Of a DNA stretch of 64,000 bases, positions 3,604 through 58,119 are shown piece by piece. This DNA is from a virus. The notes beneath the pieces were generated by a model. The model ran no database searches. It was not told the origin of the DNA and saw only the letters and a list, made by a program, of their open reading frames with translations. Within the stretch, counting starts at the first letter, position 1. Each line of letters starts with the position of its first letter. Position numbers and translations under genes: made by a program. The stretch lies in IMG/VR virus record IMGVR_UViG_3300029922_000004; one strand, 5' to 3'.

Positions 3604-3910
3604 CTTCTCCCTTGATAATTGTAAAATGAGCGGGGCAAGATTTTTCTTTTCTTGATACGGGATGGTCTTTAATACTTGGCTCAATCGAAACTAAGTCATA
3701 AGCATTTAAAGCATTTCCCTCTGGAGGGAAGGTCCACTTCCAGACCGCTAAAAGCGGTTGTGCTTGTTCGTTTAACAGGGCATGGATAGCGATAAGTTTC
3801 CCACAAACGGGACAGTCAAAAGCGATAGTATGACAACGATTTAAAGGTTCGGGTAAAAGATTATTAGTCCAGCCGCCGAGAATAGATGGATTTAATTGAG
3901 AAAATTTCAT
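3590..3910 (-). CDS. Small Cys/His protein (DUF6527-like)
   Basis: CPVCG ... SIEPSI ... CPAHFTIIKGEV pattern; overlaps neighbours in an operon. Confidence 0.5.
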   Translation of the reverse strand: MKFSQLNPSILGGWTNNLLPEPLNRCHTIAFDCPVCGKLIAIHALLNEQAQPLLAVWKWTFPPEGNALNAYDLVSIEPSIKDHPVSRKEKSCPAHFTIIKGEVILN

Positions 3911-4142: not shown

Positions 4143-5363
4143 TTATTTAATATCCTTAAGGTCACTTAATTTGTCGTAGATTGAATTTTGTTGCGAGGCC
4201 ACTGAATCCGCGAATAAACTATCATCGGCTGTTTTTGACCCGCTTACTATAACTACCGAACCTTCGGGCGGAATACCGTTATTCATCGTTTTACAATCTT
4301 CTAGCTTATTAGGACGCCATTTGGTTTCCTTAGTGTTTTCGCCGAGGCCGAATAACATCACCTTTATAGACCCGCTTTCGTCGGAGATTTGAAAATTCGC
4401 GTAGGGAGTTCCGGCTTTGGACTTGGTAACTTTAACTTCGTCAATCTTGCCGATGAAGTCGCAGTGGTTCTTTTCTTCTAGTTTTTTCACTTCGGAGATT
4501 GGAATTAGGGTGGACTTTTTGTGGAGGAAGATGTCGCGGAGTTTTTTGCCGGTATTGTAACCGAGGAGTTTTTCGGAATAAAAATAATTTGCAAAATCAA
4601 GGCTAATTTTGTTTTTGTTATAAATTTCCTTGTATTTTTGTGAATTCCGCTTAATTGTTTCAAAACGAGAAGGTTTAATCAAAGGTTTGCCCTTTTCATC
4701 CTTGACTACTTCTACTAATGCTTTAACTGTCTTGGCTACATTGTCTTCGTAGTTTTTGGCGTATTTGGCGACGTTGAGTTTTTCATGGTCTTTTAAAAGA
4801 TTCCAAAGTTGAGCTTCGTAGACGAGTAGGACGCGATTCTTACCGAGAGAGTCTAAACATCCCGCCTGAATGATTGCGCTGATTATCCCAATACCTAAAC
4901 CCGCTTTTTTGGCGGAAGAGAATAACTCAAATTTACTAGCATATTGACGTTGGAAATTATTGAATTTTTCCATTGTTTTTTCGCTGATACCCTTGATAGA
5001 CGCCAGACCGAAACGAATATTCTTATCTTCAATTGCGAAGTCCATGCCGGATAAAGTCAAACTCGGCGGAAGTAATTCCACCCCAAAAGACGACATCTCT
5101 TTATGAATTTTAGAAATTTCGCCAATCGGGTCAGGCTCATTGCGAGTCATTTTTAATAGAGAAAGATAGAATTGAGTTGGATAATTGAACTTGAGGTAAA
5201 CGGTTTGAGCGGTAAGGATAGAATATGCAAAAGAATGGCTATTGCTAGTCACCATGCCTTCAGCATAGAAGTTATGGTCTTTGTGGTCAACTTCTAAATC
5301 AATTGTAGGCTTAACCCCAATCGGTTTGATAGAAATGATTTTTTGTTTTTTTACAGTTTTCAT
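4143..5363 (-). CDS. dnaE: DNA polymerase III alpha, C-terminal part, with N-terminal C-intein
   Basis: Begins with a 41-aa IntC ending HNFYAEGMVTSN, then SHSFAYS; LLPP, IRFGLASIKG HhH and OB-fold motifs. Confidence 0.92.
   Translation of the reverse strand: MKTVKKQKIISIKPIGVKPTIDLEVDHKDHNFYAEGMVTSNSHSFAYSILTAQTVYLKFNYPTQFYLSLLKMTRNEPDPIGEISKIHKEMSSFGVELLPPSLTLSGMDFAIEDKNIRFGLASIKGISEKTMEKFNNFQRQYASKFELFSSAKKAGLGIGIISAIIQAGCLDSLGKNRVLLVYEAQLWNLLKDHEKLNVAKYAKNYEDNVAKTVKALVEVVKDEKGKPLIKPSRFETIKRNSQKYKEIYNKNKISLDFANYFYSEKLLGYNTGKKLRDIFLHKKSTLIPISEVKKLEEKNHCDFIGKIDEVKVTKSKAGTPYANFQISDESGSIKVMLFGLGENTKETKWRPNKLEDCKTMNNGIPPEGSVVIVSGSKTADDSLFADSVASQQNSIYDKLSDLKDIK
5241..5363 (-). other. Split intein C-fragment (IntC, 41 aa)
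   Basis: TIDLEV block F, HNFYAEG, terminal Asn followed by +1 Ser. Confidence 0.9.
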
Positions 5364-5387: not shown

Positions 5388-6236
5388 ATGAATAACATTA
5401 TTGATTTAATAGGCCAAGATAAAGAAATAACCACACTAACAGATATCGTATATCATACGTTCCCGTTAAAGGATTTTGGTTCTTTAAGAGAGATTCGGGC
5501 TTTTTTACATAAAAATGGAGGTATTTATTCTTGGTTTGATTCAGAGACGCGAAAAATATACATAGGCAGCAGTAAAAATTTATGGAGACGATTTCTTTCA
5601 TATAAAAATTCCTTCTTTTATGGTAAAACAAAAAGAGTAAATATTAAATTGCTTCATAGGGTTGAAAAAGTAGGAATTAAAAATATCAAATTCTTTGTAT
5701 TGGAGCTTTTTAATAAAGAAGAGCTAGAACTTAGAAAACTAGAGCAGGAATATCTTGATAAATGTCTACCATTTGGTAAAAATGGATTTAATATACGTAA
5801 AAGCACCATTGTATATAAACCCAAACTCTTACCACAAGAAGTAATTGATAAGATAATCGAAACCCACACTGGGGAAAATTCTTCAAATGCTATCTTGACT
5901 AATGATGCCGTTTTATTAATAAAAAAACAATTAATTAGCGGCGTAAAACTTAAACCCATCTCCAAAGAATTTAAAGTATCAACTACGGTCATTAGTAATA
6001 TCAAAAGAGGCCTTACTTGGTCGCATATAAAATTATCCGAAAAAGAAGAAGAGCAATTAAAATTACTCGTCGAGCGCGATAAACGGCTCAATCTTCCACG
6101 CGAACTCATAAAATCCATTAAACGAGACATAAAATCTGGTATAAAAATGAATTTACTTGCTAAAAAATATAATTTAGGATACACTTGTATAACTGGTTTA
6201 AAATATGGTTCTTTTTATAAAGAAATCAATCCGTAA
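5388..6236 (+). CDS. Free-standing GIY-YIG homing endonuclease, antisense between the dnaE halves
   Basis: GGIYSW...IYIGSSKNLWRRF motif, conserved E and N, C-terminal HTH-like repeats. Confidence 0.9.
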   Translation: MNNIIDLIGQDKEITTLTDIVYHTFPLKDFGSLREIRAFLHKNGGIYSWFDSETRKIYIGSSKNLWRRFLSYKNSFFYGKTKRVNIKLLHRVEKVGIKNIKFFVLELFNKEELELRKLEQEYLDKCLPFGKNGFNIRKSTIVYKPKLLPQEVIDKIIETHTGENSSNAILTNDAVLLIKKQLISGVKLKPISKEFKVSTTVISNIKRGLTWSHIKLSEKEEEQLKLLVERDKRLNLPRELIKSIKRDIKSGIKMNLLAKKYNLGYTCITGLKYGSFYKEINP

Positions 6237-8046
6237 GTATTCTATATTGTTTTTCTATAATTTCTTTTAAGGGGCGCATAACTTTATCTTCGCATAATAA
6301 TTTATGTTCTAATGAGACGCGCAAGGTTCGTCCATCCTCGATGGTTATTTCATAAAGTTCTTTACTGCCAGCGATGACATCTATAACCTCTACAAAATGA
6401 TTTAGGTCATTTGTTACGTTATAAGCTTTGACTTTATCGCCGACTTTAACGTCTTTCAGCATAATCTTCCCCCTCGTTTCTTCCTGAACCGTCTCTTCTT
6501 CAAAGGCGCATTTATTGAAACTGTATCCGCCGCTATCCTCAATAATTCGCCAAAAAACCTCTCCTACATCTTGTGGTAATTTATTTTCAATAATTTTATC
6601 CTGAATCTTCTTTTCCCAAGACTTAATCTTTTCTAGGTCCTTTTTTCCAATTGCGCGTCGAAGCTGCTCTGATTCGTCAAGCGTAAAACCAATCTTATTA
6701 GCCATTTTAAGAGCCTGTTCTTGATAAAGGCATAAATTTCCGGTCTCGTGCAGAACGTCATCAAAAAATGGATGAATGGAATCAACAACCCCAGTATTAG
6801 AATATGTTGCAAATTTTTCTGTAAACTGAAGCGCTCCGGGTCTGGCTATAGCAAGAACGGCGCTTATTTCTCCTAAATTTTTTGGTTTAACTTTTTGTGT
6901 GACATTGTATCCTACCAAGGTTTCAATTTGGAACAGTCCATGAGGACTCTTTAAATCCTGCAAAGCCCTATAAATAGACAAATCATTAACATTAATGTCT
7001 GTTGGTTTGATACCAAGAGATTTGCAACAGTCCTCAATAACAGATACGCTTCTTAACCCAAGAACATCTAATTTTACTGCGAAAGACGCTACATCATTCA
7101 TACTATAACTTGATACCAAATCTTTATCGGAAGATAATTGGGTGGGGCAACAATCTTCAAGTAAATCAAATGAAATCAATAGGCCCGAAGGGTGTACTCC
7201 GAAATTCTTATTTAAATTATTTAATTTAAGTGAAGTTTCATATATTAAGGGATTTTTATCGCACCATTCTTTGAGTTCGGGAACGGGTTTGACCTTCCAT
7301 TCCCCATTCTTGTCCTTCAAGCCGTTGACTGCATCAGTAATCTCTTCAACGATTCCGTGAGATTTGGGAATCATGCTAGTCACCATAGTCATTTCGTCTT
7401 CGGCCTTCATCCCCAAGACTTTACCAACCTCTTTAATTAGTAGTTTAGAAGAAAGGGTATTTAAGGTGAGAATTTTGCAGGTTCGACCAAGATATTTAGT
7501 TTCAATATACTTTAAAACTTCGCCTCTTCGATAGAATTCGGCGTCAAAATCCACGTCAGGCGTCAGAGTTCCATCAAGGTATGTCACTCCGTCAATAATG
7601 GTTTTTTTGGCTCTGCTTTTTGATACAAATCTCTCGAAGTAGAGACCATGCTTAATGGAGTCGATTTTAGTTACCCCTATAAGGAATAATACCAAACTTC
7701 CAGCGGCAGAACCTCTGCCCGGACCTGTTGAAATATTATTTTCGTGGCAGAAGTTCAAAACATCCCATACTAATAGAATGTAATCTGTAAATCCCAATTC
7801 ATTCAAAGTATCCAATTCGTATTTTATTCTAGCAGTATATTCATCGTATTCTTTGGTTCCTTTTTTGAGATTTAGCGCGAGGAAGCCTTTTTTACATAAG
7901 GCACGGAGAAAGTCGAAATTGGAAGTTTCCTTGGGAAGATTGAGTTCTTTGAGATATTTTTCTTCCAGTTGAATAACTGGTAAGCGAACTCCCAAAACTG
8001 GGTTAGCAATGGGGGAAAATTGTGATATGAAATCGGCGGGATTCAT
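6226..8046 (-). CDS. dnaE: DNA polymerase III alpha, catalytic part (no PHP domain), with C-terminal N-intein
   Basis: GPGRGSAAGSLV, PDVDFD, HPSG, KLDVLGL, YQEQ, GYSFNK followed by CAFEEE. Confidence 0.93.
   Translation of the reverse strand: MNPADFISQFSPIANPVLGVRLPVIQLEEKYLKELNLPKETSNFDFLRALCKKGFLALNLKKGTKEYDEYTARIKYELDTLNELGFTDYILLVWDVLNFCHENNISTGPGRGSAAGSLVLFLIGVTKIDSIKHGLYFERFVSKSRAKKTIIDGVTYLDGTLTPDVDFDAEFYRRGEVLKYIETKYLGRTCKILTLNTLSSKLLIKEVGKVLGMKAEDEMTMVTSMIPKSHGIVEEITDAVNGLKDKNGEWKVKPVPELKEWCDKNPLIYETSLKLNNLNKNFGVHPSGLLISFDLLEDCCPTQLSSDKDLVSSYSMNDVASFAVKLDVLGLRSVSVIEDCCKSLGIKPTDINVNDLSIYRALQDLKSPHGLFQIETLVGYNVTQKVKPKNLGEISAVLAIARPGALQFTEKFATYSNTGVVDSIHPFFDDVLHETGNLCLYQEQALKMANKIGFTLDESEQLRRAIGKKDLEKIKSWEKKIQDKIIENKLPQDVGEVFWRIIEDSGGYSFNKCAFEEETVQEETRGKIMLKDVKVGDKVKAYNVTNDLNHFVEVIDVIAGSKELYEITIEDGRTLRVSLEHKLLCEDKVMRPLKEIIEKQYRILTD
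6229..6510 (-). other. Split intein N-fragment (IntN, 94 aa)
   Basis: Cys1 (CAFEEETV), VKVGDKV, block B VSLEHKLL, ends at the stop codon. Confidence 0.9.
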
Positions 8047-8701: not shown

Positions 8702-8731
8702 ATTATAAACTACTTTTCCGAAAACGTCAAG
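8702..8731 (-). promoter_or_regulatory. Sigma70-type promoter
   Basis: cTTGACG-17-TATAAT with TTTTCGGAAAA in the spacer. Confidence 0.75.
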
Positions 8732-17049: not shown

Positions 17050-17463
17050 TTACAAAGTAATATCAAATTTTTCTTTGAAGAAGGCGGGGGAAAGTTTGTC
17101 TACCTCATCATAATTGATTCTGACCAACTGAAATTCGTTCTTCTCAAGCCAAGCGTCTTTTTTTATATCATTTTTAATTGCGGCGAGATACTTAGAGGGG
17201 CTGTTGTTATGAAACCATCCCATCTCATTATGTTGCTGGCCGTCAATTTCAACTGCTATCTTTAGGGTAAGATTAACGATATCTACCTTCAATAAAGACC
17301 CGAAGGCAGGGAATTCTTCGTAGCAAAGCATATTAGACCAAAATGGCTTAAGAAATTGCTTCACATTAAACTGTAACTTCGACCGACTCTTACCGTCCCA
17401 ATCAATCAAATATTGGGAGACATTTTTATTAACTAATTTACCGTATGTATTATAGAGCCTCAT
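17050..17463 (-). CDS. Vsr/DUF559-like endonuclease
   Basis: VD...IAVEIDGQQH...D..K pattern. Confidence 0.75.
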   Translation of the reverse strand: MRLYNTYGKLVNKNVSQYLIDWDGKSRSKLQFNVKQFLKPFWSNMLCYEEFPAFGSLLKVDIVNLTLKIAVEIDGQQHNEMGWFHNNSPSKYLAAIKNDIKKDAWLEKNEFQLVRINYDEVDKLSPAFFKEKFDITL

Positions 17464-19633
17464 TTGAAGTTGCTCCGGCCACTAATTTTTTAATTTTAGT
17501 ATATAGAAACTGTGATACTTTTGGGTTGGCTTCAAAAAGTTTTACGCATTTATCTTCGCCCTGTATCTTTTCGGGGAAATCGGGGTTAATCTCTCGAATT
17601 TCTTTAAGAACGGATGAATCAAATTCAATCCAAGAACCCTTGCTTTTTAACATTTGATAAAACAAACCCAAATCATACAATTCTTTTTCAACCCATATTG
17701 AGTTTCCGGCTTCACGCCCATAGATAATAGGATACCTTACTGTCTCTCCCGTTGTCTCGTTGGTCGTTTTTTGTAGTCGTATAATGCAGTTATGTCCAAT
17801 CTTTTTGCTTTTATACATTTCGCCGTCCCAAAACATGTCAATCTGACCATTCTGAACTGGTAGAAATTCAAAAGCCCAAGAAGCGGCGTGTTCAAGACTC
17901 CTTCCGCCGGAGGTCTTCATTTGTTTCCAAGCGGCTTGCTGTTTCCCAATTTGAACTGTATCTCGAAATTGAGAAATCATTATGGTCGTGTGGCCAAGTC
18001 GCGGCAATAAGATATTAAAACATTTAAAAAAATGTGAAGTAATAGCCGTAATTCCGCCTTTTTGAGAAGACTCTCCAAAGTCAACGTCGAAAGCCGCTCT
18101 AGGGGCAAAATTATCCATCGAGTCCAGAACAAAAATGTATTGTTTATCTGTAAAATATTTTCCGCCTGAACCGATTAATCCTTTAATTGTGTTGCAAACG
18201 GTCTCATATTCGCGGGTACGAATAATATAACAGGTCCCATCTTCCCAATCCTCTAGTTTATCCACAAATTTTACCCCACATCTTTCAAGAAGGTTTTCGC
18301 TAAGGTCTTTATCTGAAAGAAAGTAAACTCCACGCCGATTTTTTTCTGAAAGAAATATTTTAGCGACATTTAGGGAAAATGAAGTATTATGGGTAAGATT
18401 AAATCCCTCGGTTAGGTAAAGATTATCTGGTGAGTCAACTTGAATACAGACGCATTCTTTTTCTCCGGCGGGTTGGATGTCTACTATCAGTTTTTCGGAT
18501 TCAAAAATTCTATTTTGATAGAGATTTTTTTTGCGTTCGAGAATAAAGGGACAAAAATTTGAAAAACTCATTCTAACTCTGTAACTTATATGACCTTTCT
18601 TTTTGATTCCTTTATGAGTAAAGGATGTAATTCTGCTTTTGTAAGTGGCTCGCCCTCCTAAACTTCTTACTAAAAAGACTACTTGTTCTGCTAATTTAAT
18701 GGATGTCGAAGAAAATTCCGCTCCACTATTTTTATCTGGCCGAGTATTATTGCCATCGGTATCCATTAATCCCTGTAGAATTTTTTTTCTGTTGAGAATA
18801 GAGGAGTATAAGTAAGTTTCAGGAATAAACTTATCATAAGACAACTTACCCCATAATCCCATCTCGGTAAGGGTATTTCTTAATTTCGGGGAATAGATAT
18901 AATATTCGTATCTCCTTGTTTTTCCTATTTTTTTAATTCTTTTATCAGAGAATTTAAGTCTCTTGTCTATCTCGTTCAACAATTGTTGGTCAGCCGTAGT
19001 ATATGAAACCTCATTCTTCCTTCTAAAAGAACCGTCTCCAAGCAATAACCCTAATACATATGGGTCTATTGGTAGTTTTTCATTTTGGGTTTTAAACTCG
19101 ACAGCCTTAACATAAGGAATGGAATGATTTTTATGGTCGCCTATTTTTAACGTTTGCTTAAGAAAGCCGGTCGTCTTTACTGAACCTTTTTTATTTCGCT
19201 CTCTGTCATTTTGGTTTCTGGTCAGCCACAGATGCTCATCGCAACAATAAACCTCTGTATAGTCTTCAAATATAACCTTATTAATTTTTTTTATCCCTTG
19301 GGGGAAAATATTAAGAACTTGTTTTGCTTTCCCATCGGAACCAATAACAAGACAGCTCTGTTTCAAATCCCCGATTGATTTCCATCCATAGGGGGTCATT
19401 ACTTTACTATCAATCGGCTGTGCTTTACCTGCTTCGGCTGGACCCGCGCAACGGACAATGGTGTTATGCAACCCCCCGCCGAGTTGTAGGTCGAATTTAA
19501 GGCTACCAGTTGATATTTCGTATGACTGAGGCTCAATGTCGTTGAAGTGGCCGTTTTTGTCGAGAACGGCTTGCATCCTTGCTTGTTGTGAATCTGTTTT
19601 TTCTTCTGGTTTTTGTATTTTTTCTTTTGCCAT
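17450..19633 (-). CDS. recA: RecA/UvsX recombinase with intein
   Basis: STGSLKFDLQLGGG, Walker A GPAEAGK|TS split by the intein, VLDS, ISQFR, GGRSLEH. Confidence 0.88.
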   Translation of the reverse strand: MAKEKIQKPEEKTDSQQARMQAVLDKNGHFNDIEPQSYEISTGSLKFDLQLGGGLHNTIVRCAGPAEAGKAQPIDSKVMTPYGWKSIGDLKQSCLVIGSDGKAKQVLNIFPQGIKKINKVIFEDYTEVYCCDEHLWLTRNQNDRERNKKGSVKTTGFLKQTLKIGDHKNHSIPYVKAVEFKTQNEKLPIDPYVLGLLLGDGSFRRKNEVSYTTADQQLLNEIDKRLKFSDKRIKKIGKTRRYEYYIYSPKLRNTLTEMGLWGKLSYDKFIPETYLYSSILNRKKILQGLMDTDGNNTRPDKNSGAEFSSTSIKLAEQVVFLVRSLGGRATYKSRITSFTHKGIKKKGHISYRVRMSFSNFCPFILERKKNLYQNRIFESEKLIVDIQPAGEKECVCIQVDSPDNLYLTEGFNLTHNTSFSLNVAKIFLSEKNRRGVYFLSDKDLSENLLERCGVKFVDKLEDWEDGTCYIIRTREYETVCNTIKGLIGSGGKYFTDKQYIFVLDSMDNFAPRAAFDVDFGESSQKGGITAITSHFFKCFNILLPRLGHTTIMISQFRDTVQIGKQQAAWKQMKTSGGRSLEHAASWAFEFLPVQNGQIDMFWDGEMYKSKKIGHNCIIRLQKTTNETTGETVRYPIIYGREAGNSIWVEKELYDLGLFYQMLKSKGSWIEFDSSVLKEIREINPDFPEKIQGEDKCVKLFEANPKVSQFLYTKIKKLVAGATSNEAL
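18386..19423 (-). mobile_element. Class 3 intein with LAGLIDADG endonuclease (346 aa)
   Basis: Ala1 (AQP), HLW in block B, CVCIQV in block F, THN|T end; LGLLLGDGS and LQGLMDTDG motifs. Confidence 0.88.
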
Positions 19634-34214: not shown

Positions 34215-37151
34215 ATGGATAAAATGAAATTTAACGCCTTGGAAGAAATGGCGAACTTTACCTTTACCTCAAAATATGCAAGATATGATGAAAAAAAACT
34301 CCGTCGGGAGACATGGGAAGAAACAATTAGCCGCGTTGAGAAGATGCACCTCAAGAAATTTAAGTTTTTATCAGAACCAGACAAACAAGAAATAATTAAG
34401 GCTTTTGATTTTGTTAGAGAAAAAAAGGTAAGCCCCTCAATGCGTTCGGCCCAATTTGGTGGTAAAGCCATTGAGCAACATAACGCCAGAATCTACAATT
34501 GTGGGGTTAGACATATTGACTCTATACGTTCTTTTGCTGAATCATTTTATATTCTTCTATGTGGAACTGGAATTGGATTTGGTTTGAATAAATATTTTCT
34601 TGGTCGTCTCCCCGACCTAGTAAATGAAAATGACAAAACTGGCTCTGTTCTTACTTATCCCGTCCAAGACTCAATAGAAGGATGGGCTGATTCTTTAGAG
34701 GCTTTATTAAATTGTTATTTTAAAAACACAGCCTATTCTGGAAGGAAAATCGTTTTTGATTATAGCAAAATCCGTCCGCGCGGCGCACCGCTTAAAACTG
34801 GCGGTGGGAAAGCCCCCGGATATAAGGGTTTGAAAAATGCTCACAAGAAAATCAAAATACTTTTGGACGCTATTATAGAGGATAAACATCAAACCCGCCT
34901 TAAAACCATTGATGCTTATGATATTTTAATGCATATGAGTGATGCAGTTTTATCGGGCGGTATCAGACGTTCTGCTTGTTCTGTTATTTTTGATGCTGGA
35001 GATGAGGATATGATGAACGCCAAAACTGGTAATTGGTTTAAGGATAATCCTCAACGAGCCAGAAGTAATAACTCTGCAATTATCATTCGTGGCAAAACAA
35101 CCCTTAAAGAATTTAAAACGCTTATAGGAAAAACAAAAGAATTTGGAGAACCGGGATTTATTTATGTGGAAAACGAGCAGCAATTATTAAATCCATGTCA
35201 GCCAAAATGGGCAAAACTTTTGACCCAAAATGGTATCAAAGAATTAAAAGATGTTAATATTGGAGATGAAATTTGGTCTTCTGAGGGTTGGACTAAAATT
35301 GTCAAAAAATGGTCAACTGGTGTTAAAAAGGTCTACGAGTATAGAACGACAGCGGGAGTTTTTTATGGAACCGAAAATCATAAATTAATTTCTAATGGAC
35401 AAAAGATTGAAGCCAAAGATTGCGAATCTATTGATATTTTAAGTGGAGAATATAAGTCAATCTGTGTTTTAGATACTCAAGATATTATGGACGGACTGGT
35501 TTTTGGAGATGGGTCGGTGCATGAGGCAAGTAATAATTTAGTTCATTTGTGCTTGGGAGAAAATGACCACGACTACTTTAAAAGTGAGGTGGCGGATTTT
35601 ATCATAAAACACAGACCGGGATTACACGATTTTGCTTATCAAGTCAAAACTACCATTACTCACGATGAAATTCCAAAAACCTATAATCGTAGTATCCCAG
35701 ATAGATTTTTTTATGGTAGTTATACCAAAAGGTGTTCATTTTTACGAGGGCTTTATTCTGCCAATGGGAGCATTTGTGGAAATAGAGTTACACTCAAGGC
35801 ATCGTCTTTTAAAGTTATTGAACAGGTTCAAACAATGTTATCTTCTCTTGGAATCAAATCATATTATACGACTAATAGACCAACCCAAGTTGAATTTTCA
35901 AATGGTATTTATGAGTGCAAACAGAGTTACGATTTAAATATTTCGACTGACCGAGCGAAGTTTCAACAAAATATAGGTTTTATACAGGGATATAAAAACG
36001 AAAAATTGTCGAAAATCATCAATTCGACTACTCTAAAAAATAAAGTAAAAAATAATTATGATGTTGTTTCTATTAATTTGGTCTCGGAAGAGGAAGTTTT
36101 CGATATCACCGTAGATAATCCATCTCATACTTATTGGACGCAGGGTTGCAATGTATCAAACTGCTACGAAATTTCATTCATTCCAGTAACATCAGACGGA
36201 AGAACTGGATACCAGTTTTGTAACCTGACTTCTATTAATGGAACTAAAATAACATCCCTACAAGATTTTAAAGACGCTTCTTGGGCGGCTTCTTTAATAG
36301 GAACTCTGCAAGCCGCTTATACTTCATTCCCATATCTAGGACACACCTCTGAAGAACTGTCTCGTGAAGAAAGCCTTTTGGGAGTGAGTATAACAGGAAT
36401 GTTTGACTCGCCGGAAATACTTTTTAATGAAAAACATCAAAAAGAAGCCGCTAAAGTAGCGGTTGATACAAATAAAACTTGGGCTAAAAAAATCGGCGTC
36501 AATCAAGCCGCTAGAGTAACGTGCGTTAAACCAGAGGGAACAAATAGCATAGTATTGTCGGCCTCTTCTGGAATTCATGCCCATCACGCTAAGAAATATT
36601 TCCGCCGGATACAAGTTAATAAAGATGATAATATTTTTAAATTTTTTAAACTATACAATCCGCACGCTTGCGAAGAAAGTCAGTGGAGCGCAAATAAAAC
36701 CGACGAAGTAATTACTTTTCCTATTGAAGTCCCCGCAACTTTTAAGGTCAAAAAAGATTTGACCGCCATCGAACATCTCAAATTAATAAAACTTACCCAA
36801 GAAAACTGGGTTCAGACTGGGACGACAGAAGCGAATAAAAAACCACTTCATCATAGCGTATCTTGTACTGTAATGGTAAAAGATAATGAATGGGAAGAAG
36901 TAACCAAGTATCTTTTCGAAAACCAAAAAGACTTTACAGCCGTTTCATTATTACCTTATTCTGGCGATAAGATTTATAAACAAGCACCAATGGAAGAAGT
37001 ATCGACCCCAGAAGATGAAATTAAATTTAATGAATTAATCAAAAATTGGACTCGTGTGGATTATAAAAAATTGCAGGAGGAAGACGATGCGACATTACAT
37101 TTGGCAGAGGCATCATGTCAAAATGGAGCGTGTGAATTAACCAAGATTTGA
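34215..37151 (+). CDS. nrdJ: Class II ribonucleotide reductase with intein
   Basis: PSMR, YNC, GGIRRSA, NP|CYEI, FCNLT, KPEGT, C-terminal CQNGAC. Confidence 0.92.
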   Translation: MDKMKFNALEEMANFTFTSKYARYDEKKLRRETWEETISRVEKMHLKKFKFLSEPDKQEIIKAFDFVREKKVSPSMRSAQFGGKAIEQHNARIYNCGVRHIDSIRSFAESFYILLCGTGIGFGLNKYFLGRLPDLVNENDKTGSVLTYPVQDSIEGWADSLEALLNCYFKNTAYSGRKIVFDYSKIRPRGAPLKTGGGKAPGYKGLKNAHKKIKILLDAIIEDKHQTRLKTIDAYDILMHMSDAVLSGGIRRSACSVIFDAGDEDMMNAKTGNWFKDNPQRARSNNSAIIIRGKTTLKEFKTLIGKTKEFGEPGFIYVENEQQLLNPCQPKWAKLLTQNGIKELKDVNIGDEIWSSEGWTKIVKKWSTGVKKVYEYRTTAGVFYGTENHKLISNGQKIEAKDCESIDILSGEYKSICVLDTQDIMDGLVFGDGSVHEASNNLVHLCLGENDHDYFKSEVADFIIKHRPGLHDFAYQVKTTITHDEIPKTYNRSIPDRFFYGSYTKRCSFLRGLYSANGSICGNRVTLKASSFKVIEQVQTMLSSLGIKSYYTTNRPTQVEFSNGIYECKQSYDLNISTDRAKFQQNIGFIQGYKNEKLSKIINSTTLKNKVKNNYDVVSINLVSEEEVFDITVDNPSHTYWTQGCNVSNCYEISFIPVTSDGRTGYQFCNLTSINGTKITSLQDFKDASWAASLIGTLQAAYTSFPYLGHTSEELSREESLLGVSITGMFDSPEILFNEKHQKEAAKVAVDTNKTWAKKIGVNQAARVTCVKPEGTNSIVLSASSGIHAHHAKKYFRRIQVNKDDNIFKFFKLYNPHACEESQWSANKTDEVITFPIEVPATFKVKKDLTAIEHLKLIKLTQENWVQTGTTEANKKPLHHSVSCTVMVKDNEWEEVTKYLFENQKDFTAVSLLPYSGDKIYKQAPMEEVSTPEDEIKFNELIKNWTRVDYKKLQEEDDATLHLAEASCQNGACELTKI
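35196..36161 (+). mobile_element. Intein with LAGLIDADG endonuclease (322 aa)
   Basis: Cys1 CQPKW, TENH block B, VFDITV, VSN|C; GLVFGDG and LRGLYSANG motifs. Confidence 0.9.
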
Positions 37152-45821: not shown

Positions 45822-46637
45822 ATGATTATACCTATATCGTCCGCCGAGCCAGTGTATTACATCGTGGGGATTATTACCGCCGCCGTGACATTTATACCAC
45901 TTGTATTTCATAAATTTATGAAACTTATACGGGCTATCAAATCTAAATTCCTCTATTACGAAGAAATGCAATCTAAAATTGAAAAAATCTTCCTCGAAGT
46001 CACTCCAAATCACGGAACTTCAATCAAGGACAAAATCAACAAATCTTTTGAACAGTTAGCCAAGAATACAGAATTGACAGAAAAAATCTTCTACCGCCAA
46101 AGATGGATGTTAGATAACCAAGATGTCGCCATTTTCGAGAGTGACGCCGAAGGAAAATGTGTTTGGGCTAATACCGCGTATCTTGCCTTGGTTAAGAGGG
46201 ATTTGGCATTTGTGTTGGGAGATGGATGGAAAAATATTGTAGAAAGCAATGATAGGGAGCGCGTGATACATAATTGGATTGCTTCGGTAAAAGACGGAAT
46301 TAACGCCGAAGACACTTATAATATCGTAGATGGAGAGGGGAAGATAATAAAAGTATTTTGCGCGGCCTGTAAAACCGAAAAAACAGGGTACATTGCTTCT
46401 ATTAGGTTGATTAACTCAACTGACGCGATTAAATACGCGATTAAAGACGCGGCTCAATTAATTACTACTGCCAGCGAAAAGGCTTCTAAAGATATTGAGA
46501 TAGCGGCAGATACCGCTTCGAAAATACTTACGAAACACGCCAACGAAGCAATAGAAACACTTTCTAAACGCGCCCAGATTGCTGCTGAATTGTTGAAAAC
46601 GAACGCCGAATCGTTAAAAAAAGCAAATAATTCTTGA
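45822..46637 (+). CDS. Membrane-anchored PAS-domain protein
   Basis: N-terminal TM, EVTPNHGTSIKD, AIFESDAEGKCVWAN...GDGWKNIV..DRERV, helical tail. Confidence 0.8.
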   Translation: MIIPISSAEPVYYIVGIITAAVTFIPLVFHKFMKLIRAIKSKFLYYEEMQSKIEKIFLEVTPNHGTSIKDKINKSFEQLAKNTELTEKIFYRQRWMLDNQDVAIFESDAEGKCVWANTAYLALVKRDLAFVLGDGWKNIVESNDRERVIHNWIASVKDGINAEDTYNIVDGEGKIIKVFCAACKTEKTGYIASIRLINSTDAIKYAIKDAAQLITTASEKASKDIEIAADTASKILTKHANEAIETLSKRAQIAAELLKTNAESLKKANNS

Positions 46638-52112: not shown

Positions 52113-54017
52113 ATGGATTTCAAAGACATTCAAGCCAAGCGTCAAAAACTTGCTGACGCCAAGGTTTATCTTAAATCATTATTTATTGGTCTCGACGACA
52201 TAATTGACCAGATTATTGACAATATGGAGGCGTGGTATTTAATGCCTGACATGATTAACCGTCCCATTATCATAAATCTTTGGGGCCTGACTGGCGTGGG
52301 TAAAACCGATTTGGTTCGCAAACTCGTTAAATTCTTCAAATTCACGGATAAGTATCTCGAAATTCAAATGGATACAAAATCTACCTACCACAAGTCAATC
52401 AAGTCAATTCTTTTAGACAGCAATATCGAAGAAGGAGAGGCGGGGGTTATTCTATTGGACGAAATTCAGCGTTTTCGCTCTATTGACGACACTGGCAAAG
52501 AAATTTTTGATAAAGATTTCCAAGATGTCTGGATGCTTCTCTCCGACGGAAAGTTTAGCGGCACCAGCGCAAAATCAGAACTCATTGAAGAAGTAATGAA
52601 TATGATGTATTCTAAAGAACTTAAATTAAATGGCAATAACGACGAAGAGGATGAATTGACTGGTATTAAGAAACAGAATACCGGCAAAAAACTCAAACCC
52701 CACAAATTGAAATTCAAAATGGGGATTTACCGCGCGAAACATTTAAAGAAACTTGCTCGCCTAAAGGAAAGCGTCGAAGAGATTATGGGCTGGAATGAAG
52801 ACATTGTTTTAGACAAACTCACCGACTTAATCAAGAATGGTTCAAATTCAGACTTTGAAGTGGACTATAGCAAGTGTCTTATTTTTGTCAGCGGGAATAT
52901 TGACGAAGCCTATGCGATGTCAAATATGGTCGAAGACGCGGATATTGACGCGAATACTCTTCACGCCCATTCTAAAAAAATCAACGTCATTAACATCAAA
53001 AAAGCCCTTCAAAAACGCTTCAAACCCGAACAAATTGCCCGCTTCGGCAATACTCATATTCTATATCCCTCCCTTAGTTCGGAGAATTATCGGACTCTTA
53101 TCAATAAATGCCTCAAGGAAACACTCGTTTTTGCTAGTAACTATTTGAAAATTAGCAAGGTTGAATATGAGGATAGTATTGTTGATTTCATTTACAGGAA
53201 CGGCGTCTATCCCGCGCAGGGAGTTAGGCCAGTTTTTAGCACAGTGAATAGCATATTTAATAATACGATACCCAAGATTATCCTTTATAGTAAAGAAAAT
53301 AATCTCCGCGCGGTGAAACTTGCGATTATTGATAAAACCATTCTCGTTATTGAGGGAACGAACTTTAGACTTTCGCTCAATGGAGTCTTGGATAATATTA
53401 AACGGGACATTAATGATGACAAGAAAACGTTAATCAGTGTTCACGAATGCGGCCACGCGATTGTTTATGCGTATTTATTTGGCGTCGTCCCGCAAGAAAT
53501 AAAAAGCTCAATATCTTCATTTGAGGGCGGTTATACACTTAGCAATAAACTAATCGGTTCCAAGCAGCAAATATTAAATAATACTGTTGTTCGTTTGGCT
53601 GGTCAAGCGGCGGAAGAAATCGTTTTCGGGGAATCCTACAAAAGCAACGGAGTGGGAAGCGACATTAACAAGGCCACGTCTGATATAATGACGATGTTGC
53701 GTAGGCATGGATTGGGGAAAAATATATCCCTTACTGTTTCTGCCAACCACGAGGAATCGTCAACAGCAAATGTAAATGCCGCAACATCAGAACGCGAATG
53801 CGAAAAACTCTTAATCAAGGCTCGGACACAGGCCATCAAGATTCTCCGCTCATTCGGACGATTACTCAAAGAGACCTCTACCGAACTTTTCGATAAAGGA
53901 AGCATTGAACCAAACAAATTTCAATCACAACTCGCCAAGCACGGAATTAATGCAAAAATTGTAAGCCCCGAAGTGGAATTGACCGTGGATTATAAAGGCT
54001 TATTGAAGAGATTTTAA
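52113..54017 (+). CDS. AAA+ ATPase fused to an M41 (FtsH-type) peptidase, no TM segment
   Basis: GLTGVGKT, LLDEIQ, IARFG; HECGHA, LAGQAAEE, SDINKA. Confidence 0.82.
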   Translation: MDFKDIQAKRQKLADAKVYLKSLFIGLDDIIDQIIDNMEAWYLMPDMINRPIIINLWGLTGVGKTDLVRKLVKFFKFTDKYLEIQMDTKSTYHKSIKSILLDSNIEEGEAGVILLDEIQRFRSIDDTGKEIFDKDFQDVWMLLSDGKFSGTSAKSELIEEVMNMMYSKELKLNGNNDEEDELTGIKKQNTGKKLKPHKLKFKMGIYRAKHLKKLARLKESVEEIMGWNEDIVLDKLTDLIKNGSNSDFEVDYSKCLIFVSGNIDEAYAMSNMVEDADIDANTLHAHSKKINVINIKKALQKRFKPEQIARFGNTHILYPSLSSENYRTLINKCLKETLVFASNYLKISKVEYEDSIVDFIYRNGVYPAQGVRPVFSTVNSIFNNTIPKIILYSKENNLRAVKLAIIDKTILVIEGTNFRLSLNGVLDNIKRDINDDKKTLISVHECGHAIVYAYLFGVVPQEIKSSISSFEGGYTLSNKLIGSKQQILNNTVVRLAGQAAEEIVFGESYKSNGVGSDINKATSDIMTMLRRHGLGKNISLTVSANHEESSTANVNAATSERECEKLLIKARTQAIKILRSFGRLLKETSTELFDKGSIEPNKFQSQLAKHGINAKIVSPEVELTVDYKGLLKRF

Positions 54018-54019
54018 TT

Positions 54020-54049
54020 CTTGGCAAATCCCGAAAATCCAATTAAAAT
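54020..54049 (+). promoter_or_regulatory. Native promoter orphaned by the IS insertion
   Basis: cTTGGCA-17-TAAAAT with CCCGAAAA, 5 bp from the IS right end. Confidence 0.6.
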
Positions 54050-54086
54050 AGGTAGTGATTACTCCCCAGAATAAATTCTGGGGCTT

Positions 54087-55163
54087 CTAGGCTTGCACCA
54101 AAGACGCTAATCCACGTCTTAAAATATTACGAGCCGCGTTAATGTCACGGTCGATTTTGTTTCCACATCCACAATTCATCATTCTATCGTCCAGCGACAG
54201 ATTGTGGATTTTTCCACACGAATTGCACGTCTTGGAAGTATTGCTTGGATTCACGCGGATGAGTTTCCTACCGGCACTTGCAGCCTTGTAGGACAGCATC
54301 TGCGCGAATTGCGCCCAAGATACGTCGTTATACGTTCTATTGATATTCCGAATGTCACCACTGGAAAGTTTTTTAATGTCCAAATCCTCGATTACAACTA
54401 TGCCATTTTCGGCGATGAGACGGTTGGAAAGTTTGTGGTTGAAGTCGAGACGTTGGTTAGTGATTTTGCGAAAAATATTACCGACGACGCGGCTGCGTTT
54501 TTTTCTGGCAAGACTGCCCTTTTCTTCTTTATCGCGCCTAGACGCGGCTTTCTTTATTCGTTTTAGGTTAAGGCGTAGAAATTTCGGAGACTCAAACTTT
54601 TCTCCTGCGGAAGTTGTAACGAAAGTTTTCAGCCCGAAATCCAATCCGATTGCGTCTTTACTGGGCGTATAAATCTTCATAGGTGCGTCAACCGTAAAAC
54701 TTGCGAAGAATTGCCCGCTTTGATATTTTACAGTGACGCGGGAATATTTTGTCAGAGTTCGGTGAGAAATCATTGGGATATTACCGACGTGCTGGATGTA
54801 AAGTTTGGAGCCTATCGCCTTTGCCCCGTCACCCGCCGCAAATTCTATTGACGAAAGCATTTTTTTGAAGCGCGGGAATCCGGGTTTCTGTCCCAATTTT
54901 ACGCGGCGGAAGAAATTTTGGAAGGCTTTATCCAAGCGTCTTACCGTTTGTTGCAATGACGAGACATTGGTCTTGTCTTTAAATTTCGGAACGTTGGCTT
55001 TAATCTGGTCTATCGCTGACGGTGAAGATTTGGTTTTCTCATAAACGTCAATTCGTTCTTGTCGGCAAAAATTGTAGAGTTCACAATGCTTTGCCATTTG
55101 CCGGAAGAGTTCACGTTTCTGATGCTTCGACGGATAAATACGAAATTTTATTACGGACTTCAT
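54087..55163 (-). CDS. tnpB: TnpB RNA-guided endonuclease
   Basis: FRIYP HTH, GLDFG, IEDL, CxxC zinc finger, DRDINAARNIL; catalytic D-E-D present. Confidence 0.93.
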   Translation of the reverse strand: MKSVIKFRIYPSKHQKRELFRQMAKHCELYNFCRQERIDVYEKTKSSPSAIDQIKANVPKFKDKTNVSSLQQTVRRLDKAFQNFFRRVKLGQKPGFPRFKKMLSSIEFAAGDGAKAIGSKLYIQHVGNIPMISHRTLTKYSRVTVKYQSGQFFASFTVDAPMKIYTPSKDAIGLDFGLKTFVTTSAGEKFESPKFLRLNLKRIKKAASRRDKEEKGSLARKKRSRVVGNIFRKITNQRLDFNHKLSNRLIAENGIVVIEDLDIKKLSSGDIRNINRTYNDVSWAQFAQMLSYKAASAGRKLIRVNPSNTSKTCNSCGKIHNLSLDDRMMNCGCGNKIDRDINAARNILRRGLASLVQA

Positions 55164-55549
55164 CGGCTCTTCTGATTTTCGATATACATTTTTACGACGG
55201 AATCAGAGACACTTCCAACCGTTCCTACATAATAAGACGCCGCCCATAGGTGAGGTAGTCGCGTAAGCTGCGGATATTTTTCACGCAGGAAACGAGCGGT
55301 TGCTCCTTTAAGCCTTTTGACGATAATATGCGGACTTAACTTCGGCGGGGAACTTACGAAAGCGTGAACGTGGTCTGGCATTATTGCCAACGACAAAACT
55401 TCAATTTGGCTATTCGCAGCGGTCGTTCTTATGATAGATTCGCAGTCGGTGGCGATTGCATCTACCAATACAGCTTTGCGTCTTTTCGGACAAAAGACGA
55501 TGTGATAATTGATATTATACGCGCAATGACTACGAATTTTCGCTTCCAT
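55160..55549 (-). CDS. tnpA: Y1 HUH transposase
   Basis: YHIVFCPKRR, PDHVH, YIENQ. Confidence 0.95.
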   Translation of the reverse strand: MEAKIRSHCAYNINYHIVFCPKRRKAVLVDAIATDCESIIRTTAANSQIEVLSLAIMPDHVHAFVSSPPKLSPHIIVKRLKGATARFLREKYPQLTRLPHLWAASYYVGTVGSVSDSVVKMYIENQKSR

Positions 55550-55589
55550 GACTATATTTACACTAAAAACGCGGCTTGTGAAAATAAAT

Positions 55590-55680
55590 CTTGACTTTTT
55601 ATGAAAAACCTGCTAACCTCGTTTCAGGTCGGATTCCCCACGGGAATAAATTCCCGTGTCCCCTCCTCGAAATTTATGGA
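55590..55680 (+). repeat. 91-bp direct repeat, copy 1 (IS left end, outward promoter, target)
   Basis: Identical to 56922-57012; contains TTGACT-17-TAACCT. Confidence 0.92.
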
Positions 55681-56320
55681 TATTAAAGAATTCAATATAA
55701 TCAAATTCCCCGCCGTCATCTTTAGTGACAGCCACACGAATTTATCTAATATCCGCCGGTTAAAGGAGTTATACCCTGATAGTCAATTTTTCTCTCTGGG
55801 AGATATTTGTCAACTTTTTGCGAAAAAGGGAGATAAAAGTAACGAACTATCCATTCAATACTTCATTGATAATAAAATTCCCTCTTTGGACTCAAACCAT
55901 GAATCACATATTTGCGGGGTGGAAGACGGAAATCATTTGTTAGTCTTGGATAAAAGCCACACGATAGATTCTGGATATGATTTGCCGAAACATCAAGTAG
56001 AGTGGTTAACGAGTCTTCCGCGCGGATTTAAACTTATCCTTCCAAATGGGAAAAACTACTACTGTTTCCATAATCAACCTCTAGACCTTTGGACTCACCC
56101 TGATAAAATTACCGAAATTGAATTTCGGGAAAAGTATATTTTTGATGACAACACGCTGGCGGTAATCTGCGGCCATTGTCATACTAATAAAATAGATGAA
56201 TTTACCCCAAAGAGAATCCTTATCGGTCAACTCGCGGGCGACGACCACCACACTAAATCCCAAAACGGCGGGAATTATCTTCTATTGACTGAGAAGGGGT
56301 TAGAATTTAAAAAACTTTAA
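55676..56320 (+). CDS. Calcineurin-like metallophosphoesterase
   Basis: SDSH, GDI, NHE, FHN, GHCH motifs. Confidence 0.85.
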   Translation: MDIKEFNIIKFPAVIFSDSHTNLSNIRRLKELYPDSQFFSLGDICQLFAKKGDKSNELSIQYFIDNKIPSLDSNHESHICGVEDGNHLLVLDKSHTIDSGYDLPKHQVEWLTSLPRGFKLILPNGKNYYCFHNQPLDLWTHPDKITEIEFREKYIFDDNTLAVICGHCHTNKIDEFTPKRILIGQLAGDDHHTKSQNGGNYLLLTEKGLEFKKL

Positions 56321-56568
56321 ATATAAAGTATCGGCGTGAATCGCCCCGAAGTCAGCTTAGAAGTAGGTAATCCGGTTTTCGTAATCTCATACCACTTAGC
56401 GGCGAACTCTTTGTTCCATTGGTATAGCAATCCAGAACTGACACCCGTATAACCCGTCGCCTCATAATAGAAATTTCCAGTCCCCGCGCCGCTCAATTCC
56501 GAAAGTCCCGTGGGTAATTGGTGAAGGCGGGTTTGAAAATCCCAAGAGTGTCCAGTGATGTATGCCAT
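56317..56568 (-). CDS. Hypothetical protein, possibly virion-associated
   Basis: SG/TG-rich like the tail-type ORFs. Confidence 0.55.
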   Translation of the reverse strand: MAYITGHSWDFQTRLHQLPTGLSELSGAGTGNFYYEATGYTGVSSGLLYQWNKEFAAKWYEITKTGLPTSKLTSGRFTPILYI

Positions 56569-56570
56569 AA

Positions 56571-56900
56571 TTAATTCGGGGAAAGAAAAATTCCCTTGTC
56601 CGTTTCTGGTTCTGCATTAGTTAAAACTTCCATAAATAAATCTAATTCTTCCCCTTGAAGTTCCACCTTACTTTGGAGGTTTGTAAAATCGGTTTTGAGT
56701 TGGGTTATGTTTTCGGTTTTATCGCCGAGGTTGTGGCCGACCCACTGGTTGACATTTTTAATATCGGACGTGTTTTGGTGAACCTGCCAATATGTTGTAA
56801 AAATTCCCGCGATTATACCCAAAATTGTGATGATTTGACCGCCGGTAATGACAAAATGGCGGTGTTTTTTCCAAGTTTTCTTGAATTTTTTGAGTTTCAC
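56571..56900 (-). CDS. Membrane protein with coiled coil
   Basis: One TM plus heptads; GTGTAA box upstream. Confidence 0.6.
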   Translation of the reverse strand: MKLKKFKKTWKKHRHFVITGGQIITILGIIAGIFTTYWQVHQNTSDIKNVNQWVGHNLGDKTENITQLKTDFTNLQSKVELQGEELDLFMEVLTNAEPETDKGIFLSPN

Positions 56901-56921
56901 AAGGGTAATTACACATTTTGA

Positions 56922-57012
56922 CTTGACTTTTTATGAAAAACCTGCTAACCTCGTTTCAGGTCGGATTCCCCACGGGAATAAATTCCCGTGTCCCCTCCTC
57001 GAAATTTATGGA
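56922..57012 (+). repeat. 91-bp direct repeat, copy 2 (orphan IS left end)
   Basis: Identical to 55590-55680; no adjacent right end or transposase. Confidence 0.92.
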
Positions 57013-57024
57013 ATATAATAGAGT

Positions 57025-57654
57025 ATGAATCTACTGAAACCCCATGTTCTAGTTTTGAATAATGGCTGGTTGCCAATCGGGGTGACAACATTTAAGAAGG
57101 CGTTGGTATGTCTTTGCTCTGAGGGTAATGGGTCGCTTGTCGCCAAGGCTCTTGATATTTGCTACAAAGAAATCAGTGATGGGGTCTGGGACTTTGACTC
57201 CCCTACGGCCATCAACGCGGTCCCATTTGAGGAATGGGTGAACTTGCCGGTGAGACCATTCGACCTAGCCGTAAATACGCCTAATAAACAAATTAGATTA
57301 CCTTCAATTATTGTAACTCTGCAATTTTCTAAAATGCCTATGCGGAAAGTTCGCGCCACGAGTAAGAATATCATGGAGAGGGATAATTATACCTGTCAAT
57401 ACACTGGGGTAAAACTGCCTAAGTCTAAACTTTCATTGGACCATATTCATCCCCGCGCTCTTGGCGGGAAAGAGACTTTCACAAATTTAGTGACATGCTC
57501 CAAAGAAATTAATTCAAAAAAGGGTCACAAAACTAACGAAGAAGCTGGCTTAAAATTAATTCGCCGCCCCTCAGAGCCTCTACCTATGCCAGCTTCGGCT
57601 TTAATAAAAGAAATCCGCAGCCGTGATTGGGCAATCTTTATCAACAAAAGATAA
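57025..57654 (+). CDS. HNH endonuclease
   Basis: VLVLN, RDNYTCQYTG, DHIHP...GG...NLVTC..IN..KG. Confidence 0.88.
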   Translation: MNLLKPHVLVLNNGWLPIGVTTFKKALVCLCSEGNGSLVAKALDICYKEISDGVWDFDSPTAINAVPFEEWVNLPVRPFDLAVNTPNKQIRLPSIIVTLQFSKMPMRKVRATSKNIMERDNYTCQYTGVKLPKSKLSLDHIHPRALGGKETFTNLVTCSKEINSKKGHKTNEEAGLKLIRRPSEPLPMPASALIKEIRSRDWAIFINKR

Positions 57655-57658
57655 AGTT

Positions 57659-57688
57659 CTTGACTTTTCCCGAAAACCCTGCTATCAT
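57659..57688 (+). promoter_or_regulatory. Sigma70-type promoter
   Basis: cTTGACT-17-TATCAT with TTTTCCCGAAAA. Confidence 0.72.
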
Positions 57689-57694
57689 TTCTCA

Positions 57695-57901
57695 ATGAGT
57701 AAATCAAAGAAAACCGGCCAAGACTGGAGCGAACTCCTTGAAATTCGCATCCTCTCTCCTGATGGATGGTCTAATCACAAACAATTTGCGAGCGAACTAA
57801 TTACAAAATTGGAATTCCTCAACCGCGCGGCGGTCAGCACAGTGGAAAAACGCGCCGATATTAGTCGGCGGGCGGTTGCGAAGATTTTGAAAGAAATATG
57901 A
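57695..57901 (+). CDS. Hypothetical protein
   Basis: ILSPDGW motif; directly after the promoter. Confidence 0.6.
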   Translation: MSKSKKTGQDWSELLEIRILSPDGWSNHKQFASELITKLEFLNRAAVSTVEKRADISRRAVAKILKEI

Positions 57902-58119
57902 CCTACGGCATCTTTAACATCACCAAAAATAAATGGCTCCTTGACGAAAATTTCCAAGTTGTCGTATTCGATTCTCTATCCAAGGCCAAGCGGGGACTTG
58001 ATGAAGTCAACCAAATTAAAACCCTCAGCCGCCGGACGAAAGATTACGAATACGAGATAAGGGAAGACCCCGATTTAAGTGAGTCGTTTGATTTAAACAA
58101 GTATGAGCCTCTTAGCTGA
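57898..58119 (+). CDS. Hypothetical protein
   Basis: ATGA overlap. Confidence 0.6.
   Translation: MTYGIFNITKNKWLLDENFQVVVFDSLSKAKRGLDEVNQIKTLSRRTKDYEYEIREDPDLSESFDLNKYEPLS

Follow-up and report, generated by a model that had tools for sequence, protein, structure and literature searches.

An IS200/IS605 element at a phosphoesterase start codon in a jumbo phage carries a candidate outward promoter of the phage's own class

The window analysed in the present study is a 64,000-nucleotide stretch of viral DNA (IMG/VR record IMGVR_UViG_3300029922_000004), and its phage origin was indicated by a DNA polymerase, a DnaB helicase, a ribonucleotide reductase, five tRNAs and a tmRNA encoded on it. An AAA+/M41 protease gene (52113-54017) and a calcineurin-like phosphoesterase gene flank a minus-strand tnpA/tnpB pair. 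Three other assemblies carried the same locus, base for base, and the locus was found in peat metagenomes of many studies; a TnpB of identical sequence was also recorded on a 186 kb contig. TnpB genes are common in phages, and homologues were present in 432 cultured phage records, every one of them with less than 60% identity. Elsewhere in the window, the DNA polymerase was split into two minus-strand ORFs (4143-5363 and 6226-8046), which matched consecutive parts of one PHROG profile (323-793 and 793-1082); the approximately 860 bp between them are possibly an intron or a homing-endonuclease insertion. A 727-aa ORF (17450-19633, minus strand) gave mixed P-loop matches (terminase-like, UvsX-like and DnaC-like) and could contain an intein, as could the 978-aa ribonucleotide reductase (34215-37151), whose profile was matched in two stretches. 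A search for intron families found none within the window. The main features of the locus were as follows.

54055-55675, minus strand: complete IS200/IS605 element of 1621 bp without target duplication, its ends set by three relatives (L021, L025 and L027) and a second flank in run X3.
54055-54087, minus strand: right end, with foot GAAG, an 8-bp hairpin (54064-83, from folding), then AGTAATCAC and the cleavage site TCAC at the terminus.
54087-55163, minus strand: tnpB, 358 aa; its 3' part and the right end are the presumed omegaRNA scaffold.
55160-55549, minus strand: tnpA, 129 aa, encoding a Y1 HUH transposase.
55620-55675, minus strand: left-end core, beginning AAATTT, with foot GGGA and an 8-bp hairpin (55639-58).
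55676-56320, plus strand: calcineurin-like phosphoesterase gene, 214 aa, opening with ATGGA (55676-80), the reverse complement of the target/TAM TCCAT.

The TnpA protein matched Pfam Y1_Tnp at 6e-38, and alignment to solved TnpA structures indicated that its catalytic residues were intact, including the HVH (HUH) motif and the C-terminal Tyr. The TnpB protein matched the Pfam OrfB_IS605 and Cas12f TNB domains and retained both the RuvC Asp-Glu-Asp triad (motifs GLDFG, IEDL and DRDINAA) and the zinc-finger cysteines (CxxC...CxC). It matched the ISDra2 TnpB structures at 1.7e-36 and was aligned over 348 residues to a designed TnpB-like nuclease. Both ends carried subterminal 8-bp hairpins in direct orientation on one strand, with no terminal inverted repeats, and the right-end terminus TCAC read as GTGA at 54055-58 on the plus strand. 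The foot tetranucleotides were readable at both ends, GAAG with the cleavage site TCAC at the right and GGGA with CCAT at the left. When six relatives were compared, the right-end stem showed compensatory changes across the six elements, and a second stem upstream of it likewise covaried. Both stems lay within the last 90 nt of the element, and their covariation fits a guide-RNA (omegaRNA) scaffold; a search for an Rfam family gave no match. Every testable defining feature of the IS200/IS605 family was found in the element which, judged by its intact tnpA and tnpB, would be autonomous.

The ends were examined in three relatives (L021, L025 and L027; TnpB 70-75% identical), which were obtained via TnpB protein similarity and never via a DNA motif and therefore provided a fair test. 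The contexts compared were those of these three, with the closest TnpB relatives (P0002, P0003 and P0009-P0011) left out. In all three, the left end read TCCAT followed directly by AAAT...GGGGAC, a hairpin and GNGGAAT, and the right end read GAAGCCC, a hairpin and GGGAGTAGTCAC up to the terminus, summarised as AGTARTCAC. TCCAT adjoined the left end in 4/4 elements, the window's included, and the right flanks across the window, L021, L025 and L027 were unrelated (TACCTA, TAGAAT, TATCAG and CGTTCT). The relatives were 1623-1671 bp long. Because the ends and the unrelated flanks agreed across the relatives, the element in the window was delimited at 54055-55675 without target duplication. A contig of run X3 contained the identical right end, starting exactly at 54055, beside a different flank ending in AAATGTTATAATTTCC, which by its sequence is another insertion site. 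These results bore out the element ends and the (T)CCAT target proposed in a preliminary description of this DNA, as the same junctions recurred in relatives found by TnpB similarity. Its TnpA guide/cleavage pairs, GAAG/TCAC and GGGA/CCAT, were likewise upheld and follow the IS608 pattern.

A pattern scan for right ends terminating in TCAC returned about 240 loci or more; these were mostly tnpB-only, at most 52% identical and with a different left end, and they were left out of the left-end statistics. Six more distant, GC-rich left ends, retrieved with a CCAT-anchored pattern, had NCCAT flanks. Two miniature gene-less derivatives on GC-rich viral contigs, L272 (449 bp) and L274 (~300 bp), had the same left end, CCAT followed by AAAT...GGGGAC. 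In L027, the upstream gene read into the right end and stopped at the TGA within GTGA (3609-3612), the complement of TCAC, so the right end supplies a stop codon to the truncated gene. No excision joint was found among the contigs of four peat runs.

The start of the phosphoesterase gene was supported by nine homologues (213-227 aa; ten sequences with the window's own), all of which began at the Met of 55676. Thus, the ATG at this position is the true start, and a 239-aa gene call represented an in-frame extension into the IS end. The earlier claim that the target is the reverse complement of the phosphoesterase start codon agreed with these N-termini. Most homologues started with Met-Asn and the window's gene started with Met-Asp, which creates the TCCAT in this gene.

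The window contained approximately 159 TCCAT sites, of which ~8 were start codons, 14 lay in other non-coding DNA and ~136 lay inside genes; start codons therefore made up ~8 of the ~22 tolerable sites, about one third. Among 11 left ends examined, three validated and three plausible cases lay at start codons, roughly the one third expected if only non-disruptive insertions survive. The distant miniature L274 adjoined the ATG of a DUF2460 tail gene with an intact N-terminus, and the insertions in L021 and L027 lay upstream of genes, not at their start codons. The position singled out in the preliminary description therefore required no mechanism of active start-codon targeting. What needs explanation is the tolerance of such insertions, and it is here that the outward promoter enters.

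The promoters of the phage were searched across the window with the pattern TTGRCN-16/18-TANNNT and GAAA in the spacer. At least 12 phage promoters shared TTGACw, a 17-nt CCCGAAAA-type spacer (T/A-rich, then CCCGAAAA) and TAnnnT. In each of them an ATG or GTG followed 5-7 nt after the -10, so the genes look leaderless. This spacer-conserved class can be written TTGACw-wwYCCCGAAAA-N6-TAnnnT, with examples at 46634, 50076, 52078, 57660, 59440 and 63184 on the plus strand and at 8730, 12238, 16692 and 27942 on the minus strand. A second class consisted of GTG-TAATAT/TAATTA with the start codon 5-8 nt further on. A Shine-Dalgarno motif was absent in 70/86 crude gene calls, which suggests mostly leaderless or Shine-Dalgarno-independent expression in this phage. 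The promoter scans identified one such promoter on the far side of the element from the phosphoesterase gene.

54021-54054, plus strand: displaced native phosphoesterase promoter, comprising TTGGCA (54021-26), the 17-nt spacer AATCCCGAAAATCCAAT, TAAAAT (54044-49) and AGGTA up to the junction.

The displaced promoter ranked 15th in the window by a phage-promoter matrix, and its -10 ended 5 nt from the IS junction, which matches the local gap between -10 and ATG. Deletion of the IS in silico gave TAAAAT-AGGTA-ATGGAT, and the predicted IS-free junction joins TAAAATAGGTA to ATGGAT. The reconstruction of the empty site, in which the native promoter meets the ATG, was thus borne out in silico at the exact local promoter-to-ATG norm. 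The minus strand of the displaced promoter region was also the predicted 16-nt TnpB guide match (TACCTATTTTAATTGG). No empty allele was found by blastn of 53000-58000 or by tblastn against cultured phages, nor at phosphoesterase or AAA-protease loci in IMG/VR. The contigs of four peat runs showed occupied junctions only, and contigs cannot show rare variants, so this does not imply absence. Two related jumbo phages with the phosphoesterase were considered as empty sites and rejected because their gene order differs.

The arrangement recurred in L025, whose TnpB was 75% identical to that of the window and which came from a different sample and a different gene context. Its right flank read TTGACA-17-TATACT-CTGATA, with 6 nt between the -10 and the IS, and its left flank was the ATG of a D12 adenine (Dam) methylase gene, the Pfam match of which began at profile position 1, indicating an intact N-terminus. 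By this reading of its flanks, L025 is a second independent case of an IS between promoter and ATG. The second flank in run X3 contained TGTTATAAT, a perfect extended -10, 4 nt from the right-end junction.

Two back-to-back promoters were recognized between the left-end core and tnpA.

55550-55582, minus strand: tnpA promoter of leaderless type, with TTCACA (55582-77), GTG-TAAATA (GTGTAA 55563-58) and 5 nt before the ATG; also in L021 and L025.
55591-55619, plus strand: candidate outward promoter, with TTGACT (55591-96), the 17-nt spacer TTTTATGAAAAACCTGC and TAACCT (55614-19).

GTGTAA boxes were found 13-17 nt before an ORF start in 13 of 24 cases in the window, and the motif recurred in related jumbo phages. 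The tnpA genes of L021 and L025 had the same GTGTAAATA 5 nt before the ATG. The box before tnpA (55558-63, minus strand) was therefore present and of phage type, as previously described, but, since L021 and L025 share it, it was inherited within the IS lineage rather than acquired as a local adaptation to the phage. Because L025 and L027 have the same promoter types, the whole IS lineage may live in such phages.

For the outward promoter, a position weight matrix was built from 12 phage promoters, with the outward and displaced promoters left out of the training set. The two copies of the outward promoter ranked 13-14 of ~128,000 positions with 22.2 bits, and the left-end and displaced promoters were the best non-training matches but one. 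The spacer alone scored within the top 3e-4. These ranks indicated that the outward promoter belongs to the class of the phage. Its -10, TAACCT, was weak, with C at a position where the 12 training promoters have A, G or T, and a generic sigma-70 scan of the window did not report TTGACT-17-TAACCT. Two leaderless-type promoters in L027 used TAACCT or TATCCT. The proposal of an outward phage-type promoter thus held for the -35 and the spacer, whereas the -10 fitted poorly and the generic scan missed it. The predicted transcript would start near 55626 and have a leader of ~50 nt, which contains the left-end hairpin and an A/U-rich stretch between the hairpin and the AUG. The hairpin was stable and lay 17 nt before the AUG, and folding of the whole predicted leader was no better than that of shuffled sequence (z = -0.57).

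In the left end of L025, an outward TTGACA-17-TATTAT was collinear with the outward promoter of the window. In the alignment, 6 nt separated the -35 from the conserved tnpA-promoter box of each element, which suggests that the outward promoter is probably ancestral to the pair and was not borrowed locally. The idea that the outward promoter is a hybrid of the -35 half of an HNH gene promoter and the IS was rejected on the same 6-nt spacing. No convincing outward promoter was found in L021 and L027, so it is not a constant of the family.

A second copy of this left end lay downstream of the phosphoesterase gene.

56922-57012, plus strand: orphan left end, in which the outward promoter, hairpin and TCCAT recur unchanged but tnpA, tnpB and a right end are missing.

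The 91 bp at 55590-55680 were repeated with 100% identity at 56922-57012, and the junction of the copy was confirmed in contigs of three runs. The copy began one base ahead of the -35 and ended with TCCAT; in the full element, its inner edge corresponds exactly to the gap separating the two back-to-back promoters. The predicted transcript start of the copy would lie near 56958. It was located just upstream of TATAAT (57014-19), AGAGT and the ATG (57025) of an HNH endonuclease gene (57025-57654), and it therefore appears to split another leaderless promoter, in the spacer of the HNH gene's own. No right-end-like sequence bounding the copy was found, and a minus-strand ORF ending at 56317 overlapped the phosphoesterase stop and left no room there for a right end. 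Either recombination or the deletion of a formerly full copy may have produced it. A 6-codon mini-ORF from the TCCAT-derived ATG of the copy ended in ATGA, overlapping the HNH start.

We propose the following mechanism for the locus. An IS200/IS605 element would have inserted into the minus strand of jumbo phage DNA, 3' of TCCAT and right before the phosphoesterase ATG, and would thereby have moved the phosphoesterase promoter, with its -10 only 5 nt from the ATG, 1.6 kb away. Most likely, the outward promoter would then transcribe across the left-end hairpin into the phosphoesterase gene and keep the insertion tolerable. We infer from the promoter match that the outward promoter fires and compensates, and the IS may be tolerated because it replaces the promoter that it cut off. 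Since the genes of this phage lack Shine-Dalgarno sites, translation from an AUG behind a leader is plausible where the context is A/U-rich. In this family, the TAM of TnpB equals the transposon target (10.1101/2023.03.14.532601). With the target serving as TAM and the right-end flank as guide, the TnpB target predicted earlier, TCCAT followed by TACCTATTTTAATTGG, follows from this published rule. During co-infection, TnpB with a guide reading TACCTATTTTAATTGG would cut IS-free copies at TCCAT. With the IS lying between promoter and ATG, we consider it probable that its outward phage-class promoter serves the phosphoesterase and that TnpB can cut IS-free copies. A wider version is more tentative and seems to us possible but doubtful. 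It describes an IS605 lineage of leaderless-start jumbo phages, whose target/TAM TCCAT lies in an immutable start codon and whose portable, phage-tuned promoter makes insertion nearly neutral. Its TnpB would convert IS-free genomes in co-infection, and orphan left ends would persist as domesticated promoters.

The locus might instead hold an ordinary tolerated insertion at a rare non-disruptive TCCAT. The phosphoesterase could be dispensable or could be reached by read-through that starts at the displaced promoter and crosses the IS, and the outward sequence would serve the IS itself, by insulation or tnpA regulation, or be inactive. Such an insertion needs no special explanation of its position, given the share of start codons among tolerable TCCAT sites (~8 of ~22), and it agrees with the weak outward -10 and with L021 and L027, which lack such a promoter. 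However, it leaves aside the spacer-specific match to the phage promoter class and the collinear -35/-10 of L025, which also lies at a junction of promoter and ATG. An orphan copy that retains exactly the promoter and the hairpin before another gene likewise speaks against it, and we regard the ordinary insertion as unlikely.

The identity of the orphan copy over 91 bp, its TCCAT flank and its location on the same strand as the right end would also suit a composite unit, in which TnpA pairs 57007, at the orphan left end, with 54055, at the right end, and moves 2.95 kb with the phosphoesterase and two small ORFs as cargo. Related jumbo phages, however, hold phosphoesterase homologues without any IS, the 2.95-kb unit was not seen elsewhere or excised among the contigs of four peat runs, and the reconstruction of the first site suits the promoter layout better, which makes the composite unit quite improbable. 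Finally, the promoter and the hairpin could be a phage regulatory cassette outside the IS, with the true IS boundary near 55590; the phage-class promoter and the recurrence of the 91 bp ahead of another phage gene, where no transposase is near, would suit this. This reading is already contradicted by sequence comparison and is very improbable: relatives in unrelated settings retained the hairpin along with its GGGGAC foot and an AAAT terminus at TCCAT, the hairpins of the two ends were alike, and the promoter was flanked by two conserved elements, the left-end core and the tnpA promoter box.

The TnpB nucleases of IS200/IS605 elements are ancestors of Cas12, and how these elements persist harmlessly in their hosts is an active question, for which the self-splicing of IStrons is one known route to harmless insertion. 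If the proposed mechanism is true, promoter replacement at the one unchangeable position of a gene would be a second route, new for IS200/IS605. It would further show in what way transposons are tolerated by compact phage genomes, provide a natural TnpB with a TAM including CAT, and account for the conversion of orphan IS ends into phage promoters. Should the outward promoter be silent, the locus would be no more than a well-defined IS insertion at one of the rare tolerated sites.

The element resembles IS608 of Helicobacter and ISDra2 of Deinococcus in its Y1 HUH TnpA with TnpB, its subterminal hairpins without inverted terminal repeats, and its insertion 3' of a short specific target without duplication. 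The foot/cleavage pairs of IS608 are GAAT/TCAA and AAAG/TTAC. Relative to these, GAAT/TCAA became GAAG/TCAC and AAAG/TTAC became GGGA/CCAT, with position 4 changed on both partners. Unlike IS608 and ISDra2, the element targets TCCAT with ATG in its complement, has an outward left-end promoter back to back with the tnpA promoter, and lives in jumbo phages with leaderless-type gene starts. In Salmonella, the art200 antisense RNA of IS200 overlaps and represses the tnpA mRNA. The left-end hairpin of IS200 together with art200 resembles the present arrangement in that signals are packed between the left end and tnpA and a promoter opposes tnpA (see also 10.1101/2024.06.26.600842). Whereas art200 overlaps the tnpA mRNA, the two promoters in the window diverge, and their transcripts would not overlap.

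Outward promoters at IS ends are known from IS10 (pOUT), ISAba1, IS1, IS2 and others, and like the candidate described here they present an outward -35/-10 pair able to express the adjacent gene. Elements of the IS10/ISAba1 type activate or over-express chance neighbours; by contrast, the present element separates promoter and gene at the start codon, and the outward promoter it carries is of the resident phage's class. In the full-text literature, we found no description of an IS200/IS605 element that separates a promoter from a start codon and brings a replacement promoter of its own, although such silence is weak evidence. An IStron is a group I intron fused to IS605, with TnpB and omegaRNA (10.1101/2023.11.20.567912). 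IStrons and inteins are, like the element proposed here, selfish insertions that become nearly harmless by restoring the expression of the interrupted gene. The likeness to an IStron or intein drawn in the preliminary description is nevertheless loose and functional only: the insertion lies outside coding sequence, and whereas IStrons and inteins leave the RNA or the protein, nothing is removed here at either level, and at most the lost promoter is replaced.
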